From positions 18,269 through 82,268 of the forward strand of contig CAJTUD010000005.1 in assembly GCA_910579725.1 (NCBI GenBank): DNA of 64,000 bases. The letters are read 5' to 3'. Below, piece after piece: positions 28,495 to 64,000 of the stretch (position 1 is the stretch's first letter; each line of letters begins with the position of its first letter). This stretch comes from an uncultured Oscillospiraceae bacterium (lineage in GTDB: Bacteria; Bacillota; Clostridia; Oscillospirales; Oscillospiraceae). Under the pieces are notes generated by a model, which made no database searches, was not told the DNA's origin, and saw only the letters and a list, made by a program, of their open reading frames with translations. Made by a program: the position numbers and the translations under genes.

Positions 28495-28634
28495 AAAGCT
28501 ACTTGTCATGCATGTACGCGGCCGCGGCATACCGCGGTCTGTTTGGAAGCTCCCGGCCCTCAGTGGGCGGGGTGAGGATTTGTGCACGCAAACAGGGTAA
28601 AAAGCGAGTTTTTACCGGAATGGAGGACCGCGAT

Positions 28635-35431: not shown

Positions 35432-35619
35432 AATGGTGAGCACCGTCCTGCGGGACGTTTCTCAGAATACATCGTAATCAACGGAAAGGTGGTGAGGCCA
35501 GTCTCATGCGCAGTTCCCATTCCAAACAGGAGGGGAGGTGAGCGGGCAAAGCGGCGAGAGCCGTTTCAAACGACTTACCCACGCGGATGCGCGGAGCAAC
35601 GACGAAGGAGCAGTATAGT

Positions 35620-43565: not shown

Positions 43566-44900
43566 ATGGGAGAAATAAAATTTAGTCCAATGGTGGTCGA
43601 TGCCATCGGGGAGGCCATGAATATCAGCCTCGGCTCCTCCGCTACGGCAGTTTCCAATATGCTGGACCACCGCGTGGACATTACAACCCCCACGGTTCAG
43701 GTGATCAACGCGGAGGATTTTTCTCTTGGCCGGATCGAGCCGGCCATCGGCGTGGAGATCAAATATGTCTGCGGCCTGGAAGGCAGCAACATTATGATGC
43801 TCAAGCGCAGCGACGTAAAGGCCATTGTGGACATCCTGCTGGGTACGGAGACCCCCGATGAGGAATTCCAGCTGGACGAGCTGAGCATCAGCGTGGTCTG
43901 CGAGGTCATGAACCAGATGATGGGCGCGGCCTCTACGGCCCTCAGCGATCTGCTGGGACGGATGGTGAACATCTCCACCCCTGAATCCTTTGAATTAGAG
44001 GATTTGGATAAGGTGCGGGAAGAGCACTTCCCGGTTCAGACGGGGCCCATCGTGGTGGTCAGTTTCCGGCTGAGCATTGAGGGCGTCGTGGAAAGCGAGT
44101 TCATGAACGTCATGAGCGTGGATCTGGCCCGGGAGCTGGTTTCCGGCATGGGGCTGGATGTTGACGGAGAAATGGGCGGAGCATCCGCTCCGGCGCCTGC
44201 TCCCGCTCCCGCACCGGAACCCGCGGCCTCCTCCGGCGGCACTATGACCCAGGAGGAGATTGAGAGGATGATGGCCGGCGGCGTGGGGAGCGCACCGGAA
44301 CCTGCCTCCTCCTCCGGCGGCACCATGACCCAGGAGGAAATTGAGAGGATGATGGCCGGAGGGATGGAAGCTGCGGCTCCCGCTCCGGCAGCGCCCGCGC
44401 CTGCGCCAGCCCAGGGGAACGGACAGCAGCCGGGCGGATATCCGCCGCCCTATCCAGCCTATCCCCCCCAGGCGCCTGCCGGACAAGGCGGGTATCCCTA
44501 TCCCCCTTATCCGCCCTACTATATGTATCCGCCGCAGCCCCAGCAGCCTGCCCAGCCGCCGGAGCCCAAGGTCATCAGCACCCAGAAGCCCAAGATGGAG
44601 CCCCTCAGCGCCGACGCCCGTCTCAGTCAGGAGCAGAAAGAGAATCTGGATCTGATTATGGGGGTATCTCTGGAGGTCGCGGTGGAGATCGGCCGTACCA
44701 GACGGAAGATTCAGGACATCATTGCCTTCTCCAAGGGGTCGCTGGTTGTGCTGGATAAACTGGCCGGAGAGCCGGTGGACCTGCTGGTCAACGGCCAGTG
44801 CATCGCCCGGGGCGACGTGGTGGTCATCGACGACAATTTTGGCATCCGCATCACCGAGATTCTGCAAAAGCCTGATATTAATGAACTGACAAAATTCTGA
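43566..44900 (+). CDS. fliY: Flagellar motor switch phosphatase FliY (CheC-like domain + FliN domain)
   Basis: Two CheC-type E-x2-N sites (GEAMNIS, CEVMNQM) and a C-terminal FliN/SpoA domain (LEVAVEIGRTRRKIQDI...VLDKLAGEPVDLLVNG). It has an unusually long repeat- and Pro/Tyr-rich linker. Confidence 0.9.
   Translation: MGEIKFSPMVVDAIGEAMNISLGSSATAVSNMLDHRVDITTPTVQVINAEDFSLGRIEPAIGVEIKYVCGLEGSNIMMLKRSDVKAIVDILLGTETPDEEFQLDELSISVVCEVMNQMMGAASTALSDLLGRMVNISTPESFELEDLDKVREEHFPVQTGPIVVVSFRLSIEGVVESEFMNVMSVDLARELVSGMGLDVDGEMGGASAPAPAPAPAPEPAASSGGTMTQEEIERMMAGGVGSAPEPASSSGGTMTQEEIERMMAGGMEAAAPAPAAPAPAPAQGNGQQPGGYPPPYPAYPPQAPAGQGGYPYPPYPPYYMYPPQPQQPAQPPEPKVISTQKPKMEPLSADARLSQEQKENLDLIMGVSLEVAVEIGRTRRKIQDIIAFSKGSLVVLDKLAGEPVDLLVNGQCIARGDVVVIDDNFGIRITEILQKPDINELTKF
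44214..44375 (+). repeat. Two tandem 81-nt (27-aa) in-frame repeats in the fliY linker
   Basis: PEPAASSGGTMTQEEIERMMAGGVGSA is followed by PEPASSSGGTMTQEEIERMMAGGMEAA, nearly identical at the DNA level. Confidence 0.9.
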
Positions 44901-48638: not shown

Positions 48639-50753
48639 TTGCCCATGAAGCGAATTCTCCAAAACGCCATAGCGCTCGCGGTGGTTGTCATCGTCCTGTT
48701 CATTGTAGTTCCCTTACCCCTGGCACTGCTGGATGTGCTGCTGGTGGTGAATATCTCCCTGTCCATGCTGATTCTGGTTATCACCATGACGGTGTCGGAT
48801 GCGCTGGATTTCTCTATTTTTCCGTCCCTGCTGCTGATTACCACGCTGTTCCGATTGGGATTGAACATTTCCACAACCCGGCAGATTCTGGGTAACAACG
48901 GCAACGCCGGCAGCGTGATTCTCTCCTTCGGTAATATGATTACCCAGGGAAATATCGTACTGGGTGTCATTATCTTTCTGATTATCGTGCTGGTCCAGCT
49001 GATCGTCGTGACCAAGGGCGCGGAGCGTGTGTCCGAAGTGGCGGCCCGTTTCACCCTGGACGCCATGCCCGGCAAGCAGATGGCTATTGATGCAGACCTG
49101 AGTTCCGGCTTGATTGATGAGCAGGGGGCCAAGGACCGCCGGGCAAAAATCCAGAAGGAAGCGGATTTTTATGGCGCAATGGACGGTGCCACCAAGTTTG
49201 TCAAGGGAGACGCCACCCTGAGCCTGATTGTTACCGCCATTAACTTCGTGGGCGGCCTGATTATGGGTGTGACCATCGGTAAGATGGAGATGGGCGTGGC
49301 GGTGCAGACCTACTCCATCGCCACCATCGGTGACGGTCTGGTCAGTCAGATTCCTTCTCTGATGATCTCTACGGCCACTGCCATGGTAGTTACCCGGACC
49401 GTATCCGACGGCAGCCTCAATGACGACGTGGTCCGGCAGTTTTTGGGCCAACCCAAAGCCATTCTTACCGCCGGACTGGTGATTGCGCTGTTGGGCTGCA
49501 TTCCCGGCACTCCCCATGTGCCGCTGCTGATCGTGGGCGTCGGGCTGGCCGTTTCCGGCTGGTTTATCAGCACCAAAGCCGATAAGCAGCAGGTGGAGGA
49601 GGCCGCTGTTCAGGCGGCTGCCGCCGCAGTGCAGGAGGAGGCGCCTCAGCCAAGCGCCAATGAGTTCTATAAGGATATCAACAATATTTATCCGCTTTTG
49701 ACGGTGGATCCCATCGAAATGGAGTTTGGATACAGTCTTATTCCCATGGTGGACGAAAACAGCGGCGGCAAGCTGATCGGCCGCATCGTCATTTTCCGCA
49801 GGCAGTACGCTCAGGATATGGGCTTTGTCATTCCCTCCATCCGCTTCCATGACTCCTCTGCGCTGGGAACCAACCAGTATGTGGTGAAGATCAAAGGCGA
49901 AGAGGTGGCCCGGGGCGAGATTCTGGTGGACTATTATCTGGCCTTGGAGCCGGCCAATCCCGCCGGAGAGATCGACGGTATTGAAACTGTGGAGCCTGCT
50001 TATGGCATTCCTTCCCGGTGGATTCTGCCAGAGAACAAGGAAATGGCGGAAATTTACGGCTATACGGTGATTGACCCGCTCTCGGTTATGCAGACTCACC
50101 TCAGCGAGGTTGTTCGCTCTCATGCCCACGAACTGCTGGGCCGGGCAGAGGTGATTCAGCTGGTGGAAAATCTCAAGCGAACCTCTCCCGAGCTGGTGGA
50201 GGAGGCGATTCCCAATTTCCTCAGCTATGCCCATCTGGAGCGTATTCTTCGCAACCTGCTGCGGGAGGGCGTGCCTATCCGGGATCTGGGCACCATTCTG
50301 GAAACCGCAGTGGACGCTCTGGCTACCACCAAGGATTTGGATATGGTTACAGAGAATGTCCGCTCCGCGCTCAGCCGCACCATCACCCGCCGCTTCTGCG
50401 AGCATGGGCAGCTGCGGGTGGTTACGCTGGATGCCGAGGTGGAGAAGCGGGTGATCGCATCCCTGAGCAAGAACGAGCAGGGAATTTACCTGGCCATGGG
50501 TCCCGATCTCATGCAGCAGATTGTTACCCAGCTGGCGGATTTGATCAAGAAGTTCAACGATCTGGGGCAGACGCCCATTGTGCTGACCAGCCAGGTCATC
50601 CGGGTCTATTTTGCCCGGATGCTGGCTCAGTTTTACCCGAATCTGTACGTGTTGGCCTTCAATGAGATTACCAGTGACGTGCAGATTCAGTCCCTTGGCA
50701 ATATTACCATGCTGCGGGATGCCGGAGCGCAGAGAAAGGCGGCGGCAGTATGA
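48639..50753 (+). CDS. flhA: Flagellar export gate protein FlhA
   Basis: 704 aa with a TM domain carrying the FHIPEP-type loop (RFTLDAMPGKQMAIDADL), a linker and a cytoplasmic ring domain. Confidence 0.96.
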   Translation: MPMKRILQNAIALAVVVIVLFIVVPLPLALLDVLLVVNISLSMLILVITMTVSDALDFSIFPSLLLITTLFRLGLNISTTRQILGNNGNAGSVILSFGNMITQGNIVLGVIIFLIIVLVQLIVVTKGAERVSEVAARFTLDAMPGKQMAIDADLSSGLIDEQGAKDRRAKIQKEADFYGAMDGATKFVKGDATLSLIVTAINFVGGLIMGVTIGKMEMGVAVQTYSIATIGDGLVSQIPSLMISTATAMVVTRTVSDGSLNDDVVRQFLGQPKAILTAGLVIALLGCIPGTPHVPLLIVGVGLAVSGWFISTKADKQQVEEAAVQAAAAAVQEEAPQPSANEFYKDINNIYPLLTVDPIEMEFGYSLIPMVDENSGGKLIGRIVIFRRQYAQDMGFVIPSIRFHDSSALGTNQYVVKIKGEEVARGEILVDYYLALEPANPAGEIDGIETVEPAYGIPSRWILPENKEMAEIYGYTVIDPLSVMQTHLSEVVRSHAHELLGRAEVIQLVENLKRTSPELVEEAIPNFLSYAHLERILRNLLREGVPIRDLGTILETAVDALATTKDLDMVTENVRSALSRTITRRFCEHGQLRVVTLDAEVEKRVIASLSKNEQGIYLAMGPDLMQQIVTQLADLIKKFNDLGQTPIVLTSQVIRVYFARMLAQFYPNLYVLAFNEITSDVQIQSLGNITMLRDAGAQRKAAAV

Positions 50754-51568
50754 GCGCCGGGGGCGCCCCTCTGACCATGGAGGAGCTGGGTTATACCCAG
50801 AGAGAGCTGGATGAGATGAGCAAGGAGGATCTGCTCCTGCTCTATCGCTCCAGCGGCTGTCCGGACCTGAAATGGCCTTTGGCTCTGCGGTATGTCGGGC
50901 TGGTGAAGTCCATTGCTTTGCAGGTGCGGGGCGTGTATTCCAGCTTCGCTCAGGTGGACGATATCATCAACGAAGGGGTTCTGGCTCTGGTGGGAGCCAT
51001 TGACAAGTTTGATCCCGACAAGGGAATCAAGTTTGAAACCTTTGTCTCCAAACGCATCCGCGGGGCGGTCATTGACCTGGCCAGACGGCAGGACTGGGTG
51101 CCCCGCAGTGTGCGGCGGAAGGCCCGGGAAATTGATCAGGCCAGCGTGGAGCTTTACTCCGAGCTGGGCCGCTGTCCCACCGACAGCGAAATAGCCGGCC
51201 GGCTGGGCATCAGTAGCCAGCAGTATCAGGAGGATCTGGCCAACTCCGCCCTGTGCAACCTGCTCAGTCTGGATTCCATTTTTGACGATCAGGAGCAGGG
51301 AGGGGTGGACGTGGCGGACAGCGCCGGCGCGGGCCGCCCGGAGGACTCTCTGCTGCGTCAGGAGCTGCTGGACACACTTACCGAGGGCATTGCCTCCCTG
51401 CGGGAGAACGAGCAGATGGTGGTGTCCCTGTACTATAGGAAAAACCTCAGCATGAAGGAAATTGCCCAGGTCATGGAGGTCAGCGAACCGCGCATCTCCC
51501 AGATTCATTCCCGGGCCATCCAGAAGCTGAAGCTGTATATGAAGCAATACATGAATGGGGAAAAATGA
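50750..51568 (+). CDS. fliA: Flagellar sigma factor sigma-28 (FliA/SigD)
   Basis: Sigma-70 regions 2-4 are present (LRYVGLVKSIA..., DDIINEGVLALVGAIDKFD, MKEIAQVMEVSEPRISQIHSRAIQKLK). The start overlaps the flhA stop (ATGA). Confidence 0.9.
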   Translation: MSAGGAPLTMEELGYTQRELDEMSKEDLLLLYRSSGCPDLKWPLALRYVGLVKSIALQVRGVYSSFAQVDDIINEGVLALVGAIDKFDPDKGIKFETFVSKRIRGAVIDLARRQDWVPRSVRRKAREIDQASVELYSELGRCPTDSEIAGRLGISSQQYQEDLANSALCNLLSLDSIFDDQEQGGVDVADSAGAGRPEDSLLRQELLDTLTEGIASLRENEQMVVSLYYRKNLSMKEIAQVMEVSEPRISQIHSRAIQKLKLYMKQYMNGEK

Positions 51569-53186: not shown

Positions 53187-53810
53187 ATGAACATCAAAAG
53201 CTTTGATCAGCTCAACTCCCTGGAGCTGGACACCCTGAGGGAAATTGGCAGCATCGGCACCGGCAACGCGGCCACCGCACTGGGCCAGCTGCTGAACAGG
53301 GAGGTACGCATCACTTTGCCGGAAGTGCGGATCATGGGCTATAACGAGGCCATTGACTGGATTGGCGGGCCGGAGGCCGTTACCGCCGGCGTGTTGGTGG
53401 GTATGGGCGGCCAGATGAGCGGTGTGATGCTGTCGGTACAAAAGCTGGAATTCATCAATCTGGTGCTGGGCGCCATGCTGGACGTACAGATCAGCGATTA
53501 CGGAGAGCTGGAGGAGATGCACCAGTCCGCGCTCATTGAAGTGGGCAATATTCTCATCTCTACTTTTATCAATGCCCTCTCGGGATTGTCGGGAGTTGCC
53601 GTCAATCTGACGGTGCCCGGCTTCGCCGTGGATATGCAGGGAGCCATTCTGGCTGTGCCTATGGCGATGTACGGAGGAACCAGCGATTACCTGATGACCA
53701 TTGGGGGAAACTTCGTCTGCGACAGCAAGCATGTCCCCTGCCACCTGCTGCTTTCGCCTGATGTGCGTTCTCTGAACTTTTTATTAGCAAAGCTGGGCGT
53801 TGCGGAATGA
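53187..53810 (+). CDS. cheC: CheY-P phosphatase CheC
   Basis: A two-fold CheC repeat. The second site is intact (ALIEVGNIL) and the first has S in place of N (LREIGSIG). It lies upstream of and overlapping cheD. Confidence 0.85.
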   Translation: MNIKSFDQLNSLELDTLREIGSIGTGNAATALGQLLNREVRITLPEVRIMGYNEAIDWIGGPEAVTAGVLVGMGGQMSGVMLSVQKLEFINLVLGAMLDVQISDYGELEEMHQSALIEVGNILISTFINALSGLSGVAVNLTVPGFAVDMQGAILAVPMAMYGGTSDYLMTIGGNFVCDSKHVPCHLLLSPDVRSLNFLLAKLGVAE

Positions 53811-54286
53811 ACGATAAAATTACTGTCGGAATTGCGGATATGAAAATGGCCAAGGGCTCCGGCGTACTGATTACTTATGCTCTTGGCTCCTGTATCGGAC
53901 TGTGCTTTCAGGACCCCGCTCTTCGTCTGGGAGCGCTGCTGCACGTGATGCTCCCCATGAATATGGAGGCGGGGCGGAAAAACCCGATGAAATATGCCGA
54001 CACCGGTATCCGGGAAACGGTGCGGCAGATGACGGGTCAGGGGGCTCTGAAAAGCCGTATTACAGTAAAGATTGCCGGCGGAGCCAAGATGTTTGAGGTC
54101 AGCGGCGGCAGTCTTGGAAATATTGGACAGAGAAACATTGAAAGCGTCCACACTATTCTCCGGCAGGAGGGCATCCGCCTGATTGCGGAGGATGTGGGGG
54201 GCACAGTGGCCCGGACGCTGCTCTTTGATGTAGCCAGCGGACAGGGGTGCATCCGGTCCTACGGCCGGCAGGATATATTTTTCTAA
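53807..54286 (+). CDS. cheD: Chemoreceptor glutamine deamidase CheD
   Basis: ITYALGSCIGLC (catalytic Cys) and LLHVMLP (His) motifs. 159 aa. Confidence 0.92.
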   Translation: MNDKITVGIADMKMAKGSGVLITYALGSCIGLCFQDPALRLGALLHVMLPMNMEAGRKNPMKYADTGIRETVRQMTGQGALKSRITVKIAGGAKMFEVSGGSLGNIGQRNIESVHTILRQEGIRLIAEDVGGTVARTLLFDVASGQGCIRSYGRQDIFF

Positions 54287-54316
54287 GAAATAATTTAGAG
54301 ATGGGAGTGTCAGAGA

Positions 54317-55243
54317 ATGGCTGAAACGCACAACAGCCGGATCCTGCTGGAGTCCGGTACCAATGAAATTGAGATCATGAAGTTCACCATCGGAGGGAAT
54401 CTGTATGGCATCAACGTAGCCAAGGTCCGCGAGATCATGATCTCCGAGCCGGTCAAGCCCATGCCCCATGCCCACCCCTCGGTGGAAGGAATCTTCAAGC
54501 CCCGGGATTCGGTGCTGACGGTGGTGGATCTGCCCCAGTACCTGGGCGTGGAGAGCGAGAAGAATCCCAAAGATATTTTTATCATCACCAATTTCAACAA
54601 GATGTTCATTGCTTTCCGGGTTCACACCGTGGACCGCATCAGCCGTATCTCCTGGACAGATATTCAGAAACCGGATAAGACGGTTTCCGGCGGAGCGGAA
54701 GGCGTGGCCACCGGTATTGCCCAGTGTGACGGCGATCTGGTGACGATTCTGGATTTTGAGCGCATTGTGGCGGAGATTGCGCCGGAAACCACCATCCAGA
54801 TGTCCGAGGTGGAACGCCTGGGTCCCCGGGACCGGAATGACAAGCCCATCTGGGTGGCGGAGGACTCGGTGCTGCTCAGCAAGATGATCGGGGACTCTCT
54901 GCGGAAAGCCAACTATGTCAACTTGAAGATGTTCCCCAACGGGCAGGAGCTGTGGGAAGCCCTGACCTCCCTGCCGGAGAGCCGCGAGCTGACCCGGGAC
55001 GTGGCGCTGATCATCACGGATATTGAGATGCCCCAGATGGATGGTCACCGGCTGACCAAGCTGGTGAAGGACCATCCCCGCTTCCAGGAAATCCCTCTCA
55101 TTATCTTTTCTTCCCTTATCAGCGAGGAGATGCGCATCAAGGGCCGGCAGCTGGGAGCCGACGAGCAGCTGACCAAGCCGGAAATCGGCCATTTGGTGGA
55201 TGTGATGGATCATCTGCTGGAGAGAGTGTCCCAGGCCAAATAG
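54317..55243 (+). CDS. cheV: CheV (CheW-like coupling domain fused to REC domain)
   Basis: An N-terminal CheW domain (EIMKFTIGGNLYGINVAKVREI) and a C-terminal receiver with the phospho-Asp (LIITDIEMPQMDG). Confidence 0.9.
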   Translation: MAETHNSRILLESGTNEIEIMKFTIGGNLYGINVAKVREIMISEPVKPMPHAHPSVEGIFKPRDSVLTVVDLPQYLGVESEKNPKDIFIITNFNKMFIAFRVHTVDRISRISWTDIQKPDKTVSGGAEGVATGIAQCDGDLVTILDFERIVAEIAPETTIQMSEVERLGPRDRNDKPIWVAEDSVLLSKMIGDSLRKANYVNLKMFPNGQELWEALTSLPESRELTRDVALIITDIEMPQMDGHRLTKLVKDHPRFQEIPLIIFSSLISEEMRIKGRQLGADEQLTKPEIGHLVDVMDHLLERVSQAK

Positions 55244-55261
55244 GGAAGGAGTATTATCACT

Positions 55262-56530
55262 ATGGCCAACATGGCAAAAACCAAGTATATTGTCCGCCAG
55301 CCTATCAAGGATTTGCAGGGCGGAGTCTTGGGCTACGAAATCCGTTATGCCGGCGAGGACGCCGGGTTCAATGGAGAAAACGGCCAGGATTTTGCGGCGG
55401 CGGAAACCATTTATAACTTTCTGACCCAGGCCAGTGACACCACGCTGAAAGGTGCGCTGAATTTCATGACCTTCACCACAAACCTGCTCATGAAGCAGAC
55501 GCCCAAACTGTTTGCGCCAGAGGAGCTGGTCATTGTGGTGGGGGAGAGCGTGATCATTCATCCTCTGGCCATGCGCTTTGTGGAGCGTTACCGTCAGGAG
55601 GGGTATTCCGTAGCGGTGAAGGATTTCCAGTTTGCCCCCCGGTTTATCTCCAACCTGCGGCAGTTTGACTATGTGATGGTGGACCTGCGCCACGCCGAGG
55701 ACGCAGGAGTGCGCCGTCTGGCGGAGATGGTCCATAACATGGGGAAAAAGTGTGTGGCCACCGGCGTGGATACCGAGGAGCTCTATCAGAAAGCCTTCAT
55801 TTTGGGGGCCGACGCCATGTGCGGCCGTTATGCCGCCGAGCAGATGTTCACCGCCGTCCACTCCGCCAATTACTTGCAGAGCAACTTCTTCCGTCTGCTG
55901 GTGGCTATCACCAAGGACGAGCCCGAGGTGGAGGAGATCGAGCAGATCATCTCCATGGATGCCAGTCTTACCTACAGTCTGCTGCGGATTGTGAACTCTG
56001 CTTATTTCGCTCTGCGCAACCGGGCCACCAGCGTCCACCAGGCGGTAACGATCCTGGGCCTGGGTCAGCTGCGTCAATGGATTTACCTCATGGGCTGCCG
56101 GGACGAAAAGGGAGAGCTGGACGAAAATCAGGAGGAGATGCTCAAGCTCTCTTTTACACGGGCCAATTTTGCCAGCGAACTCATGCGCTATGCCAAAAAT
56201 ATGCCGGTGGGCCGGAGCGACGCTTATTTGATGGGTATGTTCTCCACGCTGCAATTTCTGATTGCAGCACCTCTGGAGGACATTCTCTCGGAGGTCGCCA
56301 TTTCTATCGACGTAAAAGACGCGCTGATCAACCACGAGGGCCGCTGCGGGTTGCTGTACGATCTGATTCTCGCCTATGAGCGGGCGGATTGGGCTACCAT
56401 CAACCGCATCGGTGAAGAGCTGGGGCTGCCTATGGACCGTCTGCCGGAAATTTACTTCCAGTGCCTGGACGACGTCAACAATATCTGGCGTCAGCTGACC
56501 GATATGGGCGGGGAAGAAGCGGCGGAATAA
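55262..56530 (+). CDS. EAL + HDOD domain protein (B. subtilis PdeH/YuxH-like architecture)
   Basis: The N-terminal YIVRQPIKDLQGGVLGYEIRY opening is typical of this EAL subfamily. The C-terminal HDOD segment is SLTYSLLRIVNSAYFALRNRATSVHQAVTILGLGQLRQW. Catalytic competence was not assessed. Confidence 0.75.
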   Translation: MANMAKTKYIVRQPIKDLQGGVLGYEIRYAGEDAGFNGENGQDFAAAETIYNFLTQASDTTLKGALNFMTFTTNLLMKQTPKLFAPEELVIVVGESVIIHPLAMRFVERYRQEGYSVAVKDFQFAPRFISNLRQFDYVMVDLRHAEDAGVRRLAEMVHNMGKKCVATGVDTEELYQKAFILGADAMCGRYAAEQMFTAVHSANYLQSNFFRLLVAITKDEPEVEEIEQIISMDASLTYSLLRIVNSAYFALRNRATSVHQAVTILGLGQLRQWIYLMGCRDEKGELDENQEEMLKLSFTRANFASELMRYAKNMPVGRSDAYLMGMFSTLQFLIAAPLEDILSEVAISIDVKDALINHEGRCGLLYDLILAYERADWATINRIGEELGLPMDRLPEIYFQCLDDVNNIWRQLTDMGGEEAAE

Positions 56531-56546
56531 AACTCCCGCGAAGAAC

Positions 56547-56581
56547 AAAAGGACCGGACCCAAGTGGGTCCGGTCCTTTTC
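56547..56581. terminator. Bidirectional rho-independent terminator between the fla/che operon and the ComFB gene
   Basis: AAAA-ggaccggaccc-aagt-gggtccggtcc-TTTT. Confidence 0.75.
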
Positions 56582-56587
56582 TGCCTG

Positions 56588-57367
56588 TCACATCAGCAGA
56601 TTTTCACGATCATGCCTGGGGCTGTCCATGACAATCTTACAGGCGCGGGTGAGCTGGGCGAAAATGGTGCTGTTATAACGGCTTTCATAGACGGTGAGCA
56701 TGGCGTGCGCCTCTGTCCGGCGGCGTACAATATAGGAAGGCTGAAGGTTTGTCAGGGTCAGTGCCCGTACATCTGCCGCGCACCGTTCACAGGAGCATAG
56801 ACCGAACATTTTGATATACCGGGGCGCTTTTTCCGCTACCAGAGATTCCATTACGTTGACGACAACCAGCTCGTCCGGGTCTGGACCGGCAGGCTTCGGT
56901 GCGGATTTGGGTTCGGGTTCGGGCTCCGGCTCCGGTTCGGGCTCCGGCTCCGGCTCGGGTTCGGGCTCCGGCTCGGGTTCGGGTTCCGGTTCGGGTTCGG
57001 GCTCCGGTTCGGGCTCGGGCTCAAGTTCCAGTTCGGGCTCCGGCTCCGGCTCGGATTCGGCTTCCAGTGCGCCGTCCAATTCAGAAAGCAGTTCATTTTC
57101 CAACGCATCCTTGATTTGCAGAGAAATCTGCTCATCATTGTTGCGGGCCACCTCCAGAATGGGCGGCGCAAGAGGACGGGGAGAGGATTCCAGCCCGCCT
57201 TCAGCAGGGGCAATGACTTCGGTATTCTCAGGGGATACGGGAGGCTCTGCCTGAGAAACAGCGGGCGGGCGGATTGTCTCGTTCTCTCCTCCAGGAGCCA
57301 GCAGATTCAGTACATGAGCAGTTTTGCTGCTCTTTGTGTTCTTTTTCGGGGTGGCCATGGGTACCAT
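56588..57367 (-). CDS. ComFB-domain protein with basic N-terminal peptide and long (EP)n linker
   Basis: The C-terminal 90 aa match the ComFB pattern (NVMESLV...[27 protein letters not shown]). The N-terminus is (MVP)[20 protein letters not shown]. The start may be the second ATG at 57358. Confidence 0.7.
56909..57052 (-). repeat. 24 consecutive in-frame hexanucleotide units encoding (EP)3(EL)2(EP)19
   Basis: I counted this unit by unit. The plus strand reads SGGYTC x 24 with only 2 variant (aagttc/cagttc) units. Confidence 0.95.
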
Positions 57368-57409
57368 CTCTCCTTAAATGATTCTCAATTGATTTCATCC
57401 GGCAAGAGA

Positions 57410-58174
57410 TCAGATGGGCAGCGCCCTGGTGATCTCGTCAATCAAGGCCCGGAAATCCGAAGCCGGTTTGGAGGCGGGGGCATAGCTGAGAACGCTCTCT
57501 CCGTGGGCAGGGGCTTCCGCTACTGAGACGCTGGTGCGGATTTTCGCCTCAAAGACCGTGGTGTCCAGCTGGGCGGCGATCTGTCCGGCCATATCCAACA
57601 CTTCCCGGTTGAGAGTGAAACGCTGATTGTACTTGTTGAGCAAAATGCCCAGCACCTTCAGCCGGGAGTTGTAGCACCGGCGGACAGTGTCGATGGTTTC
57701 CCGGATCTGGGCCACGCCCAGCAGGCTCAATATCTCCGGAGCCATGGGAATGACCAGCCCATCGGAAACAACGTAAGCGTTCACCGTCAGCACATTCAGC
57801 GCCGGCGGCGTGTCCACGATGATATAGTCGTAATCGTCCTGTACCTCTGCCAGGGCGTTTTTCAGCAGAAACTCACGGCCTGCCCGGTTAAATTCCAGCT
57901 CTGCGGCGCTCAGCAGGATGTTGCTGGGCAGAATGTCTCCGCACTCCGAGGGTACGATGACCTCTTTGATGGACCGGGTTCCCTTCATAACGTCATAGAC
58001 CGTGGCACAGTTGTCAATATCCAGACCCAGACAGAAGCCCAGGCTTCCCTGGGGGTCAAGGTCCACGCCCAGTACCCGCCGGCCCATTTGGTGCAGGCCG
58101 GCCAGCAGGGCGCAGGAGGTGGTTGTTTTCCCCACGCCGCCCTTTTGGTTGGTGATTGTGATAACAGCAGACAA
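57410..58174 (-). CDS. Orphan ParA/Soj-type ATPase
   Basis: Deviant Walker A ITNQKGGVGKTTT, DLDPQG, Walker B IIVDTPP, and overall collinear with Soj. The likely TTG start at 58174 has a GGAGGGG SD (the ORF-track start 58195 is also TTG). No ParB is nearby. Confidence 0.88.
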   Translation of the reverse strand: MSAVITITNQKGGVGKTTTSCALLAGLHQMGRRVLGVDLDPQGSLGFCLGLDIDNCATVYDVMKGTRSIKEVIVPSECGDILPSNILLSAAELEFNRAGREFLLKNALAEVQDDYDYIIVDTPPALNVLTVNAYVVSDGLVIPMAPEILSLLGVAQIRETIDTVRRCYNSRLKVLGILLNKYNQRFTLNREVLDMAGQIAAQLDTTVFEAKIRTSVSVAEAPAHGESVLSYAPASKPASDFRALIDEITRALPI

Positions 58175-58211
58175 AATATCCCCTCCGCTCTGCAAAATCT
58201 TTTCAATGGCT

Positions 58212-58240
58212 CTTAACTTTACTATACTACGTGACGATAA
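58212..58240 (+). promoter_or_regulatory. Possible sigma-28 promoter upstream of fliD
   Basis: (C)TTAACTTT - 12 nt - GACGATAA compared with the consensus TAAAGTTT-N11-GCCGATAA. A sigma-A-like TTTTCA-N17-TATACT overlaps it. Confidence 0.35.
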
Positions 58241-58319
58241 AAAAGTACAGAGGGATATTCTCTTTTTCTGTAAATTTTAAAAAAGAACATTGTTACTTTA
58301 TCATAAAGGAGAGATCAAT

Positions 58320-61136
58320 ATGGCATCCATCAACGGCGTCAGCGGAAATAATTTGACCAGCAGCCTGTATAATAGTGCCAATGTCATCAGCGGCCTTGCC
58401 AGCGGACTGGATACCGAGAGTATGATCGAAGGTCTGGTGCAGAGCTACCAGAAGAAGATCCAGGACTTGAGCAACAAATCCACCAAGCTGGAGTGGAAGC
58501 AGGAGGCCTACCGCAGCATTATCACCAAGATGAACGCCTTTGCCAGTAAGTACACCTCTTACAGCTCCTCCACCAACCTGATGAGCGCTTCCTTCTTCAA
58601 CAGCGCTACCAAGGTGGCCGCTCAGGGCAAGTACGCCGACAAGGTGACTGCCAGCGGCCGTACCGACAGCAGTGTGAAGCTCAACAGTGTCAAGCAGCTG
58701 GCCGACGCCGCCCGGTACACCACCAAGAGCTCTCTGGATATTGGCTCCGACTTTGCCATTACCGCTGAGGATGGTGTGAAATTTACGGATACCGTGGAGA
58801 TGGGCACGCTGTCCGGTTCCATGACCTTTGACTACGGCGGAAAGACCGTCAGCATAGTTTTTGACCCCAACAAGGATATGATTGATAACAACCTGTCCGC
58901 TGGGGACAAGGCCAAAGCGCTGGGCGACATGATCCGCGAGAAGCTGGACGACGCGAAGGTCACGCTCTCCACCGGAGAGACCAAGTCCGCCTCTGAGCTC
59001 ATTGACGTCTCCACCGACGCCTCCGGCCGGATTTCCTTCAAGGACAAGAGCTCCGGCGGCAACAGCGTGTATATCTCCGGGGCCAGCGACTCTGTGAAGG
59101 AGACCCTGAGACTGGATCTGGAGAAGGCCGACGAGAAGAAGCCCGCTACCTTCCAGGTAGGCGCTTCCACCCAGCTCACGCAGACCCCCACCGTGGCCAG
59201 TCTGATTTCCGGCAAGGCGATGAACATTTCCCTGGACGGCAGAAGCAAGACCATTTTCCTGCCGAAAGTGGCGCGGAACGGGGATGGCTCCTATACCCTG
59301 ACGCCTCCCACGCTGGGCAAGGACAAGGACGGCAACACCACGCTGTCCTATGATCCGCAAAAGGGTAAAAAGGTCAGCGAAAAAGAGTATGCCGACGCGT
59401 ATGCCGCCATGGTCAACGATGAGATACAAAAGGAGTTCGGCCAGAAGATTACCGTTTCCAATGTGGGGACAGCAGATGAAAAAGGTGTCAAGTCCCTTCA
59501 GCTGAAGATTCAGGCTCCTGAGAATTCCAGCCTTGTGGTCAACTCTGACGCTGGCAAGGCGCTGGGGATTGGGAACTCCGCCACCAACTACCTTAACACT
59601 GGAAAGACTTTGGGCGAGCTGATAAAGGACGATAAGATGTGGGACGGCCTGCCCCAGGCCAAGGATGAGAAGGGCAAGCCTCTCAAGGACGAGGACGGCA
59701 ACCAACTCTATGCCTTTGTCATCAACGGCAAGACTGTGGGCAACTACAGCAAGGAAAGCAAGCTGTCCGACATCATGAACGATATCAACAATTCCGATGC
59801 CGGCGTAAAAGTAAGTTATTCTCAGACCACCCGGGCATTTACCTTTACCAGCAAGGAGACCGGCGCGGAATATGGGATAGAGATGGGAGAGGGCCTGGCG
59901 CAGGCGCTGTTCCAGAAGCCCATGGAACCTATGGATAGCAGCGATACGCTGGAGAATATCCTGGGCAAGGATCATGAGTACGGAGATTCCTTCAAGATGA
60001 ATATTGGCGGAAAGGCAATCGAGATCGGCCTGCCGCTGGATAAGACGAGTATGAAGGAAGTCACCATAGACGAGCTGGTGAGCTATGTCAACGGCGCTAT
60101 CGGCGACCAGGGGATGAAGGCGTCTTTTGACAAGGACAGCAATACCATCACTGTGACCGATAAGGACGGCAAGAAGGTGAACGTGGAGTATGAGGACGAG
60201 ACGTCCAAGGCCCTCTTTGCCCCGTCTGTAGAGAAGGGCGGTATTTATACCGCCGGCAAGGACGCCATCTTCCAGGTGGAGGTCAACGGTCAGACCCTGG
60301 ATATGACCCGGGCTACCAACAGCGCCAATATTGACGGCCTGACCATCAACTTCAAGAGCACTTTCGAGGCAGAGGACGGCGACGAAATCTCCTTCCAGAC
60401 CAGCACCGATTCCGATAAGATTGTGGACGCGGTGAAGAGCATGATCGCCGACTACAATGAGATGATGTCGGAGATCCGGGGACAGTACGCGACTCTCCCC
60501 TATCAGAGCTCCAATGGCTCTTTCAAGACTTATGAGCCCCTCAGCGACGAGGACAAGGCCGGCATGAGCGAGAGCGCCATCAAGAGCTACGAGGAAAAGG
60601 CGAAGCAGGGACTGCTGTTCAGCGACAGCAACCTTTCCACGCTGTATGAGCGGATGCGCTCTGTCTTCGCCCCCGGCGGGACGGACGAGGCGCTGCTGCG
60701 GCAGATGGGAATCACCATGACCTACTCTTCCTCCGACGGGTCCTCCTCGATTACGCTGGATGAGAGCAAGCTGCGGGAGATGCTGGAAAGCGATCCCGAT
60801 GCGGTGGCGGATATCTTTACCCGCGCCTCCAGTTCCGGCGAGGAGTCCAATGGCATCATGCAGGGACTGAAGGTCCAGCTGGACCGCTATGCCGGCATTA
60901 CCGGCGCCAACAAGGGCATTCTTGTGCAGCAGGCCGGTACCCCCCTGAGTTCCCTGACTCTGATGAATAACAACTGGCAGAACCAGATTGACGGCATTTA
61001 TACCGACATCGAAAAATGGCAGGATAAGCTGAGCGCCCAGGTGGATAAGTACACCAGTATGTTCAGTAAGCTGGAAACACTCATCTATCAGATGAACTCC
61101 CAGAGTTCCACTCTGGCCGGCCTGATGGGCGGCTGA
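58320..61136 (+). CDS. fliD: Flagellar filament capping protein FliD, oversized
   Basis: N-terminus ISGLASGLDTESMIEGLVQSYQKKIQDL...EWKQEAYRSI and a C-terminal coiled-coil (IEKWQDKLSAQVDKYTSMFSKLETLIYQMNSQSSTL). 938 aa. The ATG at 58320 has an AAAGGAGAG SD. Confidence 0.9.
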   Translation: MASINGVSGNNLTSSLYNSANVISGLASGLDTESMIEGLVQSYQKKIQDLSNKSTKLEWKQEAYRSIITKMNAFASKYTSYSSSTNLMSASFFNSATKVAAQGKYADKVTASGRTDSSVKLNSVKQLADAARYTTKSSLDIGSDFAITAEDGVKFTDTVEMGTLSGSMTFDYGGKTVSIVFDPNKDMIDNNLSAGDKAKALGDMIREKLDDAKVTLSTGETKSASELIDVSTDASGRISFKDKSSGGNSVYISGASDSVKETLRLDLEKADEKKPATFQVGASTQLTQTPTVASLISGKAMNISLDGRSKTIFLPKVARNGDGSYTLTPPTLGKDKDGNTTLSYDPQKGKKVSEKEYADAYAAMVNDEIQKEFGQKITVSNVGTADEKGVKSLQLKIQAPENSSLVVNSDAGKALGIGNSATNYLNTGKTLGELIKDDKMWDGLPQAKDEKGKPLKDEDGNQLYAFVINGKTVGNYSKESKLSDIMNDINNSDAGVKVSYSQTTRAFTFTSKETGAEYGIEMGEGLAQALFQKPMEPMDSSDTLENILGKDHEYGDSFKMNIGGKAIEIGLPLDKTSMKEVTIDELVSYVNGAIGDQGMKASFDKDSNTITVTDKDGKKVNVEYEDETSKALFAPSVEKGGIYTAGKDAIFQVEVNGQTLDMTRATNSANIDGLTINFKSTFEAEDGDEISFQTSTDSDKIVDAVKSMIADYNEMMSEIRGQYATLPYQSSNGSFKTYEPLSDEDKAGMSESAIKSYEEKAKQGLLFSDSNLSTLYERMRSVFAPGGTDEALLRQMGITMTYSSSDGSSSITLDESKLREMLESDPDAVADIFTRASSSGEESNGIMQGLKVQLDRYAGITGANKGILVQQAGTPLSSLTLMNNNWQNQIDGIYTDIEKWQDKLSAQVDKYTSMFSKLETLIYQMNSQSSTLAGLMGG

Positions 61137-61172: not shown

Positions 61173-61568
61173 ATGGATCGGAGAGGCTATCAGCAGTATA
61201 AGCAGCAGTCCGTGGGCTCCATGACCCCCGGCGAGCTGCTGCTGCTGCTGTACGACGAACTGGTCAAGCGCGCAACCATGGCAGCCATAGCCTTGGGCAA
61301 GGAGGACTTTCCGGCCTTTGAAGCCGCCGTGGACCGGTGTACGGATATTGTCAATTACCTGGATGAGACGCTCGATCACAAGTATCCTATCAGCCAGGAG
61401 CTCAGCCGGATGTATGAGTATTTCACTTATCAGCTGGGCAGGATCAAGATCGGCCGGAACAAGCAGGAGTTGGAACGGCTGCGCCCCATGCTGGCAGATA
61501 TGCGGGACGCGTTCCGCACAGCGGAGAAAAACAGCAGCACCCAGCCCGGAAAAGGCGGCCAGTTATGA
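61173..61568 (+). CDS. fliS: Flagellin-specific chaperone FliS
   Basis: 131 aa beginning YQQYKQQSVGSMTPGELLLLLYDELVKR..., with ISQELSRMYEYFTYQL, the canonical FliS four-helix pattern. Confidence 0.92.
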   Translation: MDRRGYQQYKQQSVGSMTPGELLLLLYDELVKRATMAAIALGKEDFPAFEAAVDRCTDIVNYLDETLDHKYPISQELSRMYEYFTYQLGRIKIGRNKQELERLRPMLADMRDAFRTAEKNSSTQPGKGGQL

Positions 61569-61954
61569 GTAAAGATGACTGGTTGGAGTTGACAGTTCTG
61601 GAGAAAAAGAAGTATAATTATCTGGTGGAGATTCAGGATCTCACCCGGCAGCTGGCCGAAAGTCTGGACCGCAACGACCAGGTGTCCACCCGGATGCTGG
61701 TGGCAATGCGTCAGGATCCCATCCGGCAGCTGACCGAGGTGGAGCACAGTGGGAAGCTTCGGCTGACTGTGCTGGCTCCGGAGGACAGAGAAACGGTTGC
61801 GGCCCTGCGGAAAGGCGCCGGACCTCAGGATGACGGGCAGCGGATTTTTCAGGAGCATGCAGGAAAAACCCGCCGCCTGCTGGAGCAGATAGTGGAACTG
61901 GACCGCCGGGTGAGTCTGCGCATGGCGGGTGAAAACTCGTTTTATACTAAGTAA
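61565..61954 (+). CDS. FliT-like helical protein (positional call)
   Basis: 129 aa, predicted all-helical, with start overlapping the fliS stop. It occupies the fliT slot. Sequence support is weak. Confidence 0.4.
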   Translation: MSKDDWLELTVLEKKKYNYLVEIQDLTRQLAESLDRNDQVSTRMLVAMRQDPIRQLTEVEHSGKLRLTVLAPEDRETVAALRKGAGPQDDGQRIFQEHAGKTRRLLEQIVELDRRVSLRMAGENSFYTK

Positions 61955-62027
61955 GGAGCCCCTGTGTTCCGCCGGCTCCGGCCGGCGGAACCGGTACGCT
62001 CGGGAGAACGGGAGGCGGCGCCGCAGA

Positions 62028-62732
62028 ATGGCGGAAATTCGTCTGGAACATGTGTCGAAGCAATATATGGAGGAACGGCGTCCCACGTATGCTGTGCGGG
62101 ATATCAGCCTGACGGTGGAACAAGGGGAGTTTGTCTTTCTCATCGGAAGCAGCGGAGCGGGGAAAACCACCTTGCTGAAGCTGATGAGCGGCGAGCTGGC
62201 CCCTGACGAAGGGACCGTGTGCCTCAACAATGCCAATATGGCTCGCCTGATCGGTCCCTGGCGGGTCCGGGCCCGCCGGACTTTTGGAATTGTCAGCCAG
62301 CAGGGGCTGCTGGTCCGGAAACGCACCGTGGAAGAAAATCTGATGCTGGCGGCCAGCGCTGCCGGTATGATGCGGCGCAAGGGGCGGGAAGCTGTGAAAA
62401 AGGCGCTGGGAATTGTAGGATTGCCCGGGGTGGAGGCCTGCTATCCGGCGGAGCTGTCTATCGGCGAGAGCCGGCGGGTGGAGTTGGCCCGGGCGGTTAT
62501 CAACAGTCCCTCCATCCTTTTGCTGGATGAGCTGACAGCCAATCTGGATGACGATGTCATCTGGGATCTGGTACATCTGCTCACTGAGCTCAATTCCCGC
62601 GGCACTACCATCGTCATGGCCACCCACGCCAGCCAGTATGTGAACATTCTGCGCCGGCGGGTCATTACCCTGGTGGATGGAAGGGTTGTGGGCGACGTGA
62701 AAAACGGGAAGTACGGCGATATTTTGGGATAA
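62028..62732 (+). CDS. FtsE-like ABC-type ATPase with degenerate signature motif; no FtsX-like permease follows
   Basis: Walker A GSSGAGKTT, a Q-loop, Walker B ILLLDE and H-loop MATHAS. The signature reads LSIGESRR instead of LSGGQ. The start is at the ATG at 62028 (MAEIRLEHVSKQY). Confidence 0.75.
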   Translation: MAEIRLEHVSKQYMEERRPTYAVRDISLTVEQGEFVFLIGSSGAGKTTLLKLMSGELAPDEGTVCLNNANMARLIGPWRVRARRTFGIVSQQGLLVRKRTVEENLMLAASAAGMMRRKGREAVKKALGIVGLPGVEACYPAELSIGESRRVELARAVINSPSILLLDELTANLDDDVIWDLVHLLTELNSRGTTIVMATHASQYVNILRRRVITLVDGRVVGDVKNGKYGDILG

Positions 62733-62903: not shown

Positions 62904-64000
62904 ATGAATTTCAAGAACATGTCCATTAAGAAAAACCTAATCATAGGATTTGGTACAACAATCCTGGTCTCTTTGATTATCATTGTCACCTCTCTGGTGA
63001 TGATGAGCTCCCAGAAGGCTGCTTATCAGGATATTATCGATCATTATGTAAAGGCCAATCAGCTGGTTTCCGAGTGCCGCATCGATTATAATATTGCCGC
63101 CCGGGGCTTGCGGGACGCTGTGCTTTCCGGCGAAGTGAGTAATCTGGATACCGCCACCAGCAAAATGAACCAGCTGGAGTCGGTGATCACAGAGCTCAAT
63201 AATAATTTCCCCATGGATGACAAGACGATCTTGAATACCTTCATCAACACCATGCAGGAGTGGGGCACAGAAGCTGCGAAGATTGTCCAGGTGGCCCGCA
63301 CCGACCGCGAGAGCGCAGTGCCCATGATTACCGAAAGCTGCTCTCCCAAGCTGGCCGCTGCCGCCACTGCCGGTGACAGTCTGGCCTCTCAGCTCCAGGC
63401 CGGACAGGAAGAAATCATCAAGCAGCAGAATACCACCTCCACGATTGGCATTTTCGCCATTATTGCGGTCATGGTTGTCGCCACCGTCGTTGTGATGATA
63501 ATGGCCGTCAAGATCATCAGAAGCATTGCCGAGCCCAGCAATCAGGTCCGCGCCGCACTGGTGGGCTTCAGCCAGGGCAATCTGGGCATCCCCGTCAGCT
63601 TCACCGGCAAGAATGAGCTGGGCGAAATGTGCGACGCTCTGCGTACCAGCCAGCGGGTTCTCCACAGCGTGATTCAGGATATCTCCAGCACCACCGGTCA
63701 GATGGCCAAGGGCAACTTTGATGTGGAACTGACCGCCACCTTCCCCGGCGATCTGGCGCCCATTCAGTCCAGCGTCAATCAGTTTGTCGCCCACATGAGC
63801 GATGTAATCACCAATATCTCTCAGTCTGCCAGCCAGGTATCCGCTGGTTCCGAGCAGGTGTCCAACAGCTCCCAGTCCCTGGCTCAGGGCGCTACCGAGC
63901 AGGCCAGCGCTGTGCAGGAGCTTGCCGCCACGATCAACGACATCTCCACCAGCTCCAAGCAGACTGCCGCTTCCGCCGAGGAGGCCCGCACCAGCGTGGG
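62904..64000 (+). CDS. Methyl-accepting chemotaxis protein, 5' part (runs off the window end)
   Basis: Not in the ORF track because it has no stop. The ATG follows a TTAGGAGGAAA SD. It has TM1, a four-helix sensor region, TM2, HAMP (ELGEMCDALRTSQ) and the start of the signalling domain (SSQSLAQGATEQASAVQELAATI). Confidence 0.9.
   Translation, partial: MNFKNMSIKKNLIIGFGTTILVSLIIIVTSLVMMSSQKAAYQDIIDHYVKANQLVSECRIDYNIAARGLRDAVLSGEVSNLDTATSKMNQLESVITELNNNFPMDDKTILNTFINTMQEWGTEAAKIVQVARTDRESAVPMITESCSPKLAAAATAGDSLASQLQAGQEEIIKQQNTTSTIGIFAIIAVMVVATVVVMIMAVKIIRSIAEPSNQVRAALVGFSQGNLGIPVSFTGKNELGEMCDALRTSQRVLHSVIQDISSTTGQMAKGNFDVELTATFPGDLAPIQSSVNQFVAHMSDVITNISQSASQVSAGSEQVSNSSQSLAQGATEQASAVQELAATINDISTSSKQTAASAEEARTSV

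Follow-up and report, generated by a model that had tools for sequence, protein, structure and literature searches.

Results

A ParA gene and a ComFB-domain gene between two flagellar operons

The DNA analyzed in this work is a 64,000-nucleotide stretch of contig CAJTUD010000005.1 (assembly GCA_910579725.1) from an uncultured Oscillospiraceae bacterium; we refer to the whole of it as the window and give all positions in its coordinates. Our subject is a pair of adjacent open reading frames (ORFs), both on the minus strand and in the same frame, the first of which encodes a 254-residue ATPase of the ParA/Soj type (57410-58174) and the second a 256-residue protein with a C-terminal ComFB domain (56588-57358), called the partner below. 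An earlier note on this DNA had placed the two genes exactly between the terminator of the fla/che operon and the fliD operon, and this layout is borne out by our analysis: downstream lies a bidirectional intrinsic terminator (56547-56580), a GC-rich hairpin with an A-tract on one side and a T-tract on the other, which stands between the pair and the convergent fla/che operon, and upstream lies fliD in divergent orientation. The hairpin has a predicted free energy of -29.4 kcal/mol (z-score -4.6 compared to shuffled sequences), with 11 stem pairs counted by inspection and 14 in the centroid fold if the flanking A-U pairs are included.

The most likely start of the ParA gene, whose stop codon occupies positions 57410-57412, is a TTG at 58174, seven bases after the Shine-Dalgarno sequence GGAGGGG (58180-58186, minus strand), of which GGAGG is kept in the alignment of the intergenic regions. 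This codon is favored because the Shine-Dalgarno sequence precedes it and because the homologues begin at the same point. The partner ORF in full spans 56588-57367 and opens with MVP; since the homologues all begin with MAT or MAS, translation probably starts at the ATG at 57358. The distance between the ParA stop and the partner start is thus 42 nucleotides for the MVP start, as reported previously, or 51 nucleotides for the MAT start. The 42-nucleotide spacer carries three stop codons, so any natural in-frame read-through from one gene to the other is interrupted.

Conservation of the pair

Relatives of the pair were identified with patterns derived from the two most conserved stretches of the partner, and 79 loci with 10-kb flanks were examined; the counts given below come from tblastn searches with the window proteins, and their denominators are the loci that could be evaluated. 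The partner is encoded in at least 176 species-representative genomes and has at least 620 homologues, with the ComFB domain present in all 120 of those listed. The loci are labelled Oscillospiraceae, Oscillibacter, Lawsonibacter, Flavonifractor, Pygmaiobacter, Acutalibacter, Neglectibacter, Evtepia and, in some cases, Lachnospiraceae. In each of the 63 loci with enough upstream DNA, which come from different species and encode ParA proteins of 54-97% identity, the gene directly ahead of the partner is ParA, in the same orientation; the gap between the ParA stop and the partner start usually measures 1-60 nucleotides. The same arrangement recurs in nine further places reached via the ParA homologues (L080-L088). 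As ParA directly precedes the partner in 63/63 evaluable loci, the arrangement is far beyond chance. The earlier note had made its hypothesis depend on the two genes being neighbors in related genomes, and neighbors they are.

The surroundings recur as well: a divergent fliD precedes ParA in 58 of 62 loci, the fla/che operon, with cheV at its end, is convergent downstream in 49 of 68, and a gene for an EAL-HDOD protein occupies the convergent downstream position in 44 of 68. In the window flhA (48639-50753) is followed directly by fliA (50750-51568), and in all 48 evaluable loci the gap between these two genes does not exceed 137 nucleotides. Because flhA directly precedes fliA, neither flhF nor flhG is present at its usual site in Firmicutes, in the window or in any of these 48 loci. 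A six-frame motif scan of the 64 kb detected no second KGGxGK[ST] ATPase and no P-loop of the FlhF type, which agrees with the previous observation that flhF and flhG are missing from this cluster.

A Soj-like ATPase

The ParA protein matches the Pfam families AAA_31 (173.5 bits, E-value 5e-51, cut-off 27) and CbiA (86.5 bits, cut-off 25.4). A motif scan located the deviant Walker A sequence KGGVGKT, including the signature lysine, at residues 11-17 (58124-58144, minus strand). NQKGGVGKT, DLDPQG and IIVDTPP, which represent the Walker A, A' and B motifs, are invariant in an alignment of 66 family members. Among the solved structures the closest relatives are ParA/Soj proteins, with 8RAY and 4PFS (158 bits) in the lead, followed by Soj from Thermus (1WCV, 140 bits) and from H. 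pylori (118 bits), with 65-68 bits to MinD and 56 bits to McdA. In the alignment of the 66 members the protein is ~39% identical to B. subtilis Soj. The family retains as invariant the arginine equivalent to R189 of B. subtilis Soj, which, along with R218, is a non-specific DNA-binding arginine of that protein.

On the other hand, the protein scores 113 bits against the NCBIfam ParA_partition equivalog, the cut-off of which is 180, and 69-90 bits against the MinD models, whose cut-offs exceed 200 (e.g. 69 versus 213). The polypeptide ends directly after the core (...FRALIDEITRALPI), and inspection revealed no amphipathic membrane-targeting helix at the C-terminus. With B. subtilis Spo0J as the tblastn query, neither the window nor the 79 loci with their 10-kb flanks yielded a ParB homologue; the earlier description of a ParA-type ATPase with no ParB in the window therefore applies to the relatives too. 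As judged from these profiles and motifs, the ATPase is a Soj-like orphan ParA and not FlhG, and it falls outside both the ParABS partition systems and the FlhG/MinD group.

Domain organization of the partner protein

An alignment of 15 diverse homologues together with an AlphaFold model divides the partner into five parts: an N-terminal peptide, a variable spacer, an acidic helix, a Pro/Glu linker and the ComFB domain. The Lys-rich N-terminus, the EP/EL run and the ComFB domain with its CxCxxC cluster, all recognized in the earlier note, are present. The same note had considered about 130 residues ahead of the ComFB domain to be probably disordered; a confidently predicted, conserved helix (residues ~66-98) lies within this region.

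The basic N-terminal peptide (residues 1-20; 57299-57358, minus strand) has a net charge of +4 and is the most conserved section of the protein, with K5, K9, S10 and K12-L20 invariant. Its predicted local distance difference test (pLDDT) values are below 50, so it would be disordered when alone. Even partners that share just 31-40% identity overall have the core SKTAHV[LM]N[LIV][LI] in common, with minor variants such as SKTDHVL[NS]LL, and the polar residues T, H and N of this core are invariant. This invariance makes a membrane-targeting helix less likely, and a protein-protein interaction motif appears a better fit than a lipid-binding or membrane helix. When residues 1-95 were used to search 1.84 billion representative proteins, 54 matches were obtained, all of them at protein N-termini. 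Since every full-length match ends in a ComFB domain, the N-terminal module is exclusive to the ComFB-partner family, and no instance of it on another cargo domain was found among these matches. The most economical candidate for the binding partner of the peptide would be the highly conserved ParA that is always encoded next to it.

The acidic helix (residues 61-98; 57065-57178, minus strand) is amphipathic and conserved, with invariant columns between P62 and L90, and is modeled as a helix over residues 66-98 with pLDDT of 82-86. In some homologues it is doubled or tripled (P0250, P0273). We considered whether it corresponds to the EIDAL/FliM-N motif and rejected this assignment, as the two are out of register and a one-residue insertion would be required. 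The linker that follows (residues 99-160; 56879-57064, minus strand) is hypervariable and acidic, with a net charge of -25 and a Pro+Glu content of 82%. It is encoded by a tandem array of a Glu-Pro hexanucleotide, which Tandem Repeats Finder delimits as 56898-57064 (period 6, 27.8 copies). A set of 47 cluster representatives does not differ at all in the first 40 and last 95 residues, yet their lengths range from 277 to 361 residues, and in three loci with an identical ParA protein (L081, L082 and L083) the partners have 203, 223 and 219 residues. Either repeat slippage or assembly collapse could account for this variation in length.

The ComFB domain

The ComFB domain (residues ~164-247; 56618-56869, minus strand) is supported by Pfam, AlphaFold and Foldseek. 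It matches PF10719 with 55.9 bits (cut-off 25) over the whole profile (1-83 of 83), and it is modeled with pLDDT above 90 for residues 164-245. The model superimposes on B. subtilis ComFB (BsComFB; 4WAI) with a TM-score of 0.74 and a root-mean-square deviation of 2.2 Å, and Foldseek also retrieves the cyanobacterial protein CdgR in complex with cyclic di-GMP (c-di-GMP; 8HJA) with a probability of 1.00. The CxCxxC cluster (C188, C190, C193; 56780-56797, minus strand) is invariant and aligned with C25, C27 and C30 of BsComFB; a fourth invariant cysteine of the partner is C240. Against the NCBIfam equivalog for the Bacillus ComFB (NF052654) the partner scores 39.2 bits, below the cut-off of 120.

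The residues used for comparison, in BsComFB numbering, are those of the ComFB family paper (PMC12448109). N4, E7, D33, A36, L37, Y46 and the three cysteines are kept in the partner, and V47 is conservatively replaced by Ile; all the dimerization residues (N4, E7, D33, N40, Y46) are thus retained except N40, which is Thr here. The c-di-GMP site of BsComFB comprises D33, N40, R/K41, A36, L37, V47 and Y55, and dissociation constants of 12.6, 5.0 and 0.45 µM have been reported for the mutants D33A, N40A and K41A, respectively, so that D33A and N40A bind more weakly than K41A (PMC12448109). Of the ligand-site residues, D33, A36, L37, Y46 and V47 (as Ile) are retained in the partner.

ComFB proteins are known to bind c-di-GMP and/or cyclic di-AMP (c-di-AMP) (PMC12448109, PMC12265714), and in B. 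subtilis ComFB with c-di-GMP inhibits flagellar function rather than flagellar production (PMC12265714; inhibition also in PMC12448109). The statement in the earlier note that members of this family are cyclic-dinucleotide receptors affecting motility is therefore confirmed in print (PMC12448109, PMC12265714), and their motility targets are still unknown at the molecular level (PMC12265714). Neither comFA nor comFC is found near the pair, whose neighbors are motility genes. A role in type IV piliation or competence is unlikely for Oscillibacter, as the genome of the peritrichous type strain, O. valericigenes, has been reported to be devoid of type IV pilus genes (PMC3558957).

FliM-like repeats in the linker of one clade

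In 12 loci of a Lawsonibacter/Flintibacter-like clade (L026-L031, L036, L040, L043, L044, L047 and L076; e.g. L027:9380-9950) the linker of the partner contains one to six tandem copies of the sequence SGGKMSQ[DE]DIE[KRA][ML]L[AS]. The KMSQ[DE]DIExML part of these repeats is in register with the N-terminus of FliM (LSQxQIDALL). Across 2.73 million six-frame residues of the window and the 79 loci, matches to SQx[DEQ]I[DE]x[LM]L were confined to these repeats and to the N-terminus of the window FliM, MAEVLSQSQIDALL, a peptide that is the binding motif for phosphorylated CheY (CheY-P). In the window, both C-ring genes lie on the plus strand: FliY (43566-44900) is built from CheC and FliN_C domains and lacks an N-terminal peptide of the EIDAL type, and FliM (42561-43550) keeps one.

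The promoter region

Between the divergent ParA and fliD genes lies a conserved block of 39 bp (58214-58252), which is kept across ~45 loci, even where FlhA is only ~62% identical to that of the window. Read in the ParA sense it is CTCTGTACTTTTTTATCGTCACGTAGTATAGTAAAGTTA, with TATAGT resembling a -10 element; in the fliD sense it is TAAC-N15-GACGATAA, which resembles a sigma-28 promoter. Loci without fliD retain the TAGTATAAT part and have lost the TATCG part, and on this basis we assign the two halves of the block to ParA and fliD, respectively. This suggests that the promoters of ParA and fliD overlap and possibly compete. The -10 element on which the ParA operon appears to rely is sigma-70-like (TATAGT/TATAAT) and lies within the conserved block. 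A relaxed sigma-28 pattern occurs on the fliD-sense strand only, once in the window versus 1.2 occurrences expected by chance, so the assignment of sigma-28 to fliD comes from conservation only. A canonical sigma-D/sigma-28 promoter for ParA was rejected, as the strict pattern TAAA-N13-17-NCGAT[AT] gave no ParA-sense match in 59 intergenic regions. No Rfam family, riboswitches included, was detected at threshold near the pair or elsewhere in the window, the weak matches being the terminator hairpin.

Neighboring genes

The flagellar supercluster, which extends from flgM (21926) to fliS (61568), is bracketed by genes of the c-di-GMP type. At its far end, divergent from flgM, a PilZ-domain protein is encoded (20984-21730, minus strand), and the fla/che operon closes with the gene for the EAL-HDOD protein (55262-56530, plus strand; HDOD 77 bits, EAL 43 bits in Pfam), which converges on the pair. 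The EAL domain of the latter is probably degenerate, because just the C-terminal half of the profile is matched. In L084 and L085 a PilZ gene and a gene for a 1011-residue GGDEF-PAS-GGDEF-EAL protein are located between the pair and the EAL-HDOD gene, and in L037, L052 and L077 two PilZ genes follow the pair along with FlhB-C-like and FliK-like genes.

On the other side, the fliD ORF (58290-61136, plus strand; Pfam FliD_N and FliD_C) has a homologue-supported start near 58320 and is followed by fliS (61173-61568, plus strand; Pfam FliS). The next ORF (61565-61954, plus strand; 129 residues) has no Pfam or NCBIfam match and is found at the same position in most loci with 24-75% identity; it may encode a FliT-like chaperone. 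Past the block of fliD, fliS and this ORF (orfX), the loci L080-L085 contain a conserved set of genes for an FtsA/PilM-like ATPase of ~625 residues, a 4HB-HAMP chemoreceptor, an ABC ATPase and often a C39-like peptidase. Part of this set is seen in the window as two plus-strand ORFs (61929-62732 and 62904-64000), which account for the ABC ATPase and for a chemoreceptor whose gene is cut off by the end of the window.

Further plus-strand ORFs of the window, at 26965-27570, 35587-36600 and 28503-29027, comprise a DUF6470 protein encoded between flgL and fliW and two ORFs without a Pfam match. A 958-residue ORF on the minus strand (53687-56563) overlaps cheD, cheV and the EAL-HDOD gene in antisense orientation. 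As the plus strand of this region is filled by Pfam-supported genes, the ORF is almost certainly spurious and due to the high G+C content.

Discussion

A candidate ParA/partner module with a putative second-messenger receptor

What the partners of ParA/MinD ATPases have in common is a disordered N-terminus of positive charge, through which they act, and a gene next to that of the ATPase (PMC10241942, PMC7993993), a paradigm to which the earlier note had also referred. By its sequence and modeled disorder, the protein described here resembles this activator type, as its gene adjoins that of the ATPase in 63/63 loci and its N-terminus is basic and predicted to be disordered (features from PMC10241942). 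We consider, with belief and doubt in about equal measure, that the two proteins form a dedicated ParA/partner module, in which the ComFB-containing partner receives c-di-GMP and serves a motility-related client, the position or the free amount of which is set by the messenger.

It is tempting to envisage the module as follows. The small Soj-like ParA would form ATP-sandwich dimers, and the basic, disordered N-terminal peptide would most likely bind the ParA-ATP dimer and stimulate hydrolysis, like the N-termini of ParB, McdB, ParP and PomX. The acidic amphipathic helix would probably be a second docking or oligomerization site, and the acidic, fast-evolving linker would act as a spacer. The ComFB domain, probably a Zn-stabilized dimer, would be a receptor for c-di-GMP (possibly c-di-AMP) and would bind the client, probably a component of the flagellar switch or of the chemotaxis machinery. 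In this way, the level of the second messenger could be coupled to the location of the client in the cell or to the amount of free client, in hosts that are peritrichous Oscillospiraceae-like bacteria with a flagellar cluster devoid of flhF and flhG. We infer the interaction of ParA with the peptide, the stimulation of the ATPase, the binding of the nucleotide, the nucleoid as the matrix and the identity of the client.

Several observations weigh against this reading. First, three of the eight listed ligand contacts of the ComFB domain differ: N40 is replaced by Thr, K41 by Asn, and Y55 by His in the window and by various residues in the family. As these contact positions are not conserved, nucleotide binding by the domain is uncertain, and we regard it as plausible. 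Second, the PRNxRLSEAP motif of Soj reads IRxxVxVAEAP in this ATPase, with the loss of the equivalent of the second DNA-binding arginine (R218), which makes the binding of ParA to the nucleoid uncertain. Third, the partner from the window itself has no FliM-like repeats. Fourth, an intact pair occurs in loci L054, L057 and L059 with no flagellar genes within the flanking DNA, and likewise in L086-L088; as the contigs of the latter offer just ~0.3-0.5 kb of DNA ahead of ParA, this statement concerns their downstream side only (genes for MatE, CBAH and MerR). Fifth, the label of L057 is Butyricicoccus, and members of this genus have been described as non-motile cocci (PMC9558573); accordingly, the client may not be flagellar. 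Of the interpretation put forward in the earlier note, the conserved unit, the Soj-like ATPase and the basic peptide stand; the pairs in L054, L057, L059 and L086-L088 speak against a strictly flagellar role.

The earlier note also raised the possibility that the pair stands in for FlhF/FlhG. The data, namely the lack of flhF and flhG at the usual site in 48 of 48 loci and the peritrichous hosts, would allow a module that takes over the placement or counting of flagella from these proteins, but we regard it as speculative and somewhat unlikely. Equally doubtful is a more detailed version, according to which the ComFB partner senses c-di-GMP and is moved on or released from the nucleoid, and thereby places, counts or silences basal bodies or sequesters CheY-P via the FliM-like decoys, so that FlhF/FlhG could be dispensed with.

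Alternative explanations

An unlikely alternative to the ParA/partner module, though the first to be considered, is that the pair works as a c-di-GMP-responsive transcriptional or post-translational switch for the late flagellar genes or the motor without any spatial patterning, comparable to FleN-FleQ, Soj or the cyanobacterial ComFB/CdgR. The promoter block of ParA overlaps the sigma-28-like promoter of fliD, and both parts are kept, which speaks for such a switch; the assignment of sigma-28, however, has no statistical support within the window. B. subtilis ComFB does inhibit flagellar function, not production (PMC12265714), and cyanobacterial CdgR/ComFB acts through transcription factors according to PMC10068817 and a preprint (bioRxiv 10.64898/2026.03.27.713163), whereas neither of the two proteins studied here contains a DNA-binding domain beyond the generic surface of ParA. 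The FliM-N-like repeats could conceivably titrate CheY-P. On the other hand, the architecture of the partner, with a basic peptide, a long spacer and a C-terminal binding domain, is that of a ParA cargo adaptor.

It is also quite unlikely that the role of the pair is independent of the flagellum, e.g. in a nucleoid-associated, division or cyclic-dinucleotide signaling complex, the flagellar location being merely ancestral synteny. The loci without flanking flagellar genes bear directly on this point. Collectively, the neighbors of the pair in L054, L057, L059 and L086-L088 encode an ABC ATPase, a C39-like peptidase, a Tag glycosylase, MatE, CBAH and MerR. In L057 and L059 the ABC ATPase and C39-like peptidase genes abut ParA on its upstream side, and the same two genes flank the fliD-fliS-orfX block in L080-L085, which is reminiscent of a precise deletion that removed fliD-fliS-orfX and with it the flagellar genes. 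The clades without flanking flagellar genes have lost neither the peptide nor the helix nor the ComFB domain, and a gene for the conserved FtsA/PilM-like ATPase lies close by in L080-L085. All this speaks for a function unrelated to motility; against it stand the adjacency to fliD (58/62 loci) and to the fla/che operon (49/68 loci), the FliM-like linker repeats in one clade, and the presence of PilZ, FlhB-C-like and FliK-like genes next to the pair even in the rearranged loci.

That ParA and the ComFB protein are functionally unrelated neighbors in an operon might be suggested by the mostly stand-alone nature of ComFB proteins elsewhere (PMC12448109). We consider this very unlikely, given that the adjacency is maintained in 63/63 loci, with ParA identity down to 54% and partner identity down to 31%, despite several rearrangements around the pair, that the N-terminal module is found on ComFB proteins only, and that it shows the hallmarks of ParA-partner peptides (PMC10241942).

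Finally, it is highly improbable that the ATPase is the chromosomal Soj, with spo0J/parS elsewhere and a function in DNA segregation or replication control, in spite of its score to Thermus Soj (140 bits), its ~39% identity to B. subtilis Soj, its database name ('chromosome partitioning protein') and the retained equivalent of R189, because no ParB is encoded within 10 kb in the window or the 79 loci, the score of 113 bits is under the ParA_partition cut-off of 180, the PRNxRLSEAP motif is altered, and both the ComFB neighbor and the motility context are fixed.

Significance

ParA/MinD ATPases organize chromosomes, division sites, carboxysomes, flagella and chemoreceptor arrays, and it is the partner protein that defines the cargo. 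If the two proteins described here cooperate, they would link a second messenger directly to the spatial organization or the availability of a motility component, and, if the more detailed version given above is true, they would constitute the first system of the ParA/MinD family in which the cargo adaptor is itself a cyclic-dinucleotide receptor. The pairing of ParA with ComFB is absent from the survey of the ComFB family (PMC12448109) and was not retrieved by a full-text literature search with ComFB and ParA, which agrees with the earlier note, whose author knew of no such system. How flagella are placed in bacteria without FlhF/FlhG is an open question (PMC12826062); cooperation of the two proteins could explain how abundant gut Clostridia with peritrichous flagella (Oscillibacter, Lawsonibacter, Flintibacter, Flavonifractor-like, Acutalibacter) can do without flhF and flhG in the flagellar cluster. 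The pair is widespread in gut Clostridia, and as a small system of two genes and one 20-residue peptide it should be readily testable; the FliM-like repeats of one clade offer a handle for finding the client of the ComFB protein.

Comparison with known systems

In Vibrio, where ParC/ParP position the polar chemoreceptor arrays, ParP consists of an N-terminal region that interacts with the ATPase, a Pro-rich linker and a C-terminal client-binding domain. As in the pair described here, the gene of the ParA-like ATPase ParC lies beside that of its partner, among chemotaxis and flagellar genes. The general paradigm is cited in PMC10241942. The C-terminal domain of ParP is CheW-like and enters the chemoreceptor arrays, whereas the partner studied here ends in ComFB, a fold of cyclic-dinucleotide receptors. 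In addition, there is no evidence of a polar landmark here, the hosts being peritrichous Firmicutes (Oscillibacter, PMC3558957). McdA/McdB likewise combine a small ParA of the nucleoid type with a partner encoded next to it, whose N-terminus is basic and disordered and which also contains a central helical region and fast-evolving low-complexity sequence (PMC10241942, PMC12139897). However, the cargo of McdA/McdB is the carboxysome, McdB contains no nucleotide-receptor domain, and McdA is distant from the ParA found here (56 bits).

In Myxococcus PomXYZ, a nucleoid ParA/MinD ATPase is activated by the short basic N-terminal peptide of PomX (PMC7993993), as we propose for the partner, and PpfA positions a chemotaxis cluster in Rhodobacter (cited in PMC10241942). 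The cargos of PomXYZ and PpfA/TlpT are a divisome regulator and a cytoplasmic chemoreceptor cluster, respectively, and neither of these partners has a second-messenger receptor domain, unlike the protein from the window.

FlhG (YlxH/FleN/MinD2), which controls flagellar number and placement, resembles the ATPase described here in being a P-loop protein of the same superfamily encoded in a flagellar cluster. It reportedly binds FliY/FliM through the N-terminal EIDAL motif, and a related FliM-N/EIDAL-like motif is repeated in the linker of some of the partners analyzed here. FlhG is known to bind the C-ring proteins FliY or FliM, and Bacillus FliY carries the EIDAL motif (PMC12826062). In contrast to FlhG, the ATPase from the window is ParA/Soj-like, has by inspection no C-terminal membrane helix, is not accompanied by FlhF and has a ComFB partner.

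In Pseudomonas, a MinD/ParA-family ATPase, FleN, and a c-di-GMP-binding protein, FleQ, control the flagellar genes. An interaction of FlhG with FlrA/FleQ is mentioned in PMC12826062. FleQ is an enhancer-binding transcription factor, whereas the ComFB partner has neither a DNA-binding nor an AAA+ domain.

The C-terminal domain of the partner belongs to the same family and has the same fold as B. subtilis ComFB and the cyanobacterial CdgR/SyComFB, which are receptors for c-di-GMP/c-di-AMP, and BsComFB, too, has late flagellar genes as neighbors and in its c-di-GMP-bound form acts as an inhibitor of motility (PMC12448109, PMC12265714). However, BsComFB and CdgR are stand-alone proteins (with short extensions in the cyanobacterial ones) that are not paired with ParA and possess neither the basic peptide nor the long acidic spacer, all of which characterize the protein described here. 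As far as its predicted architecture is concerned, the partner is thus akin to ParP or McdB, and as far as its domain is concerned, it is a ComFB protein distinct from the competence ComFB of Bacillus.

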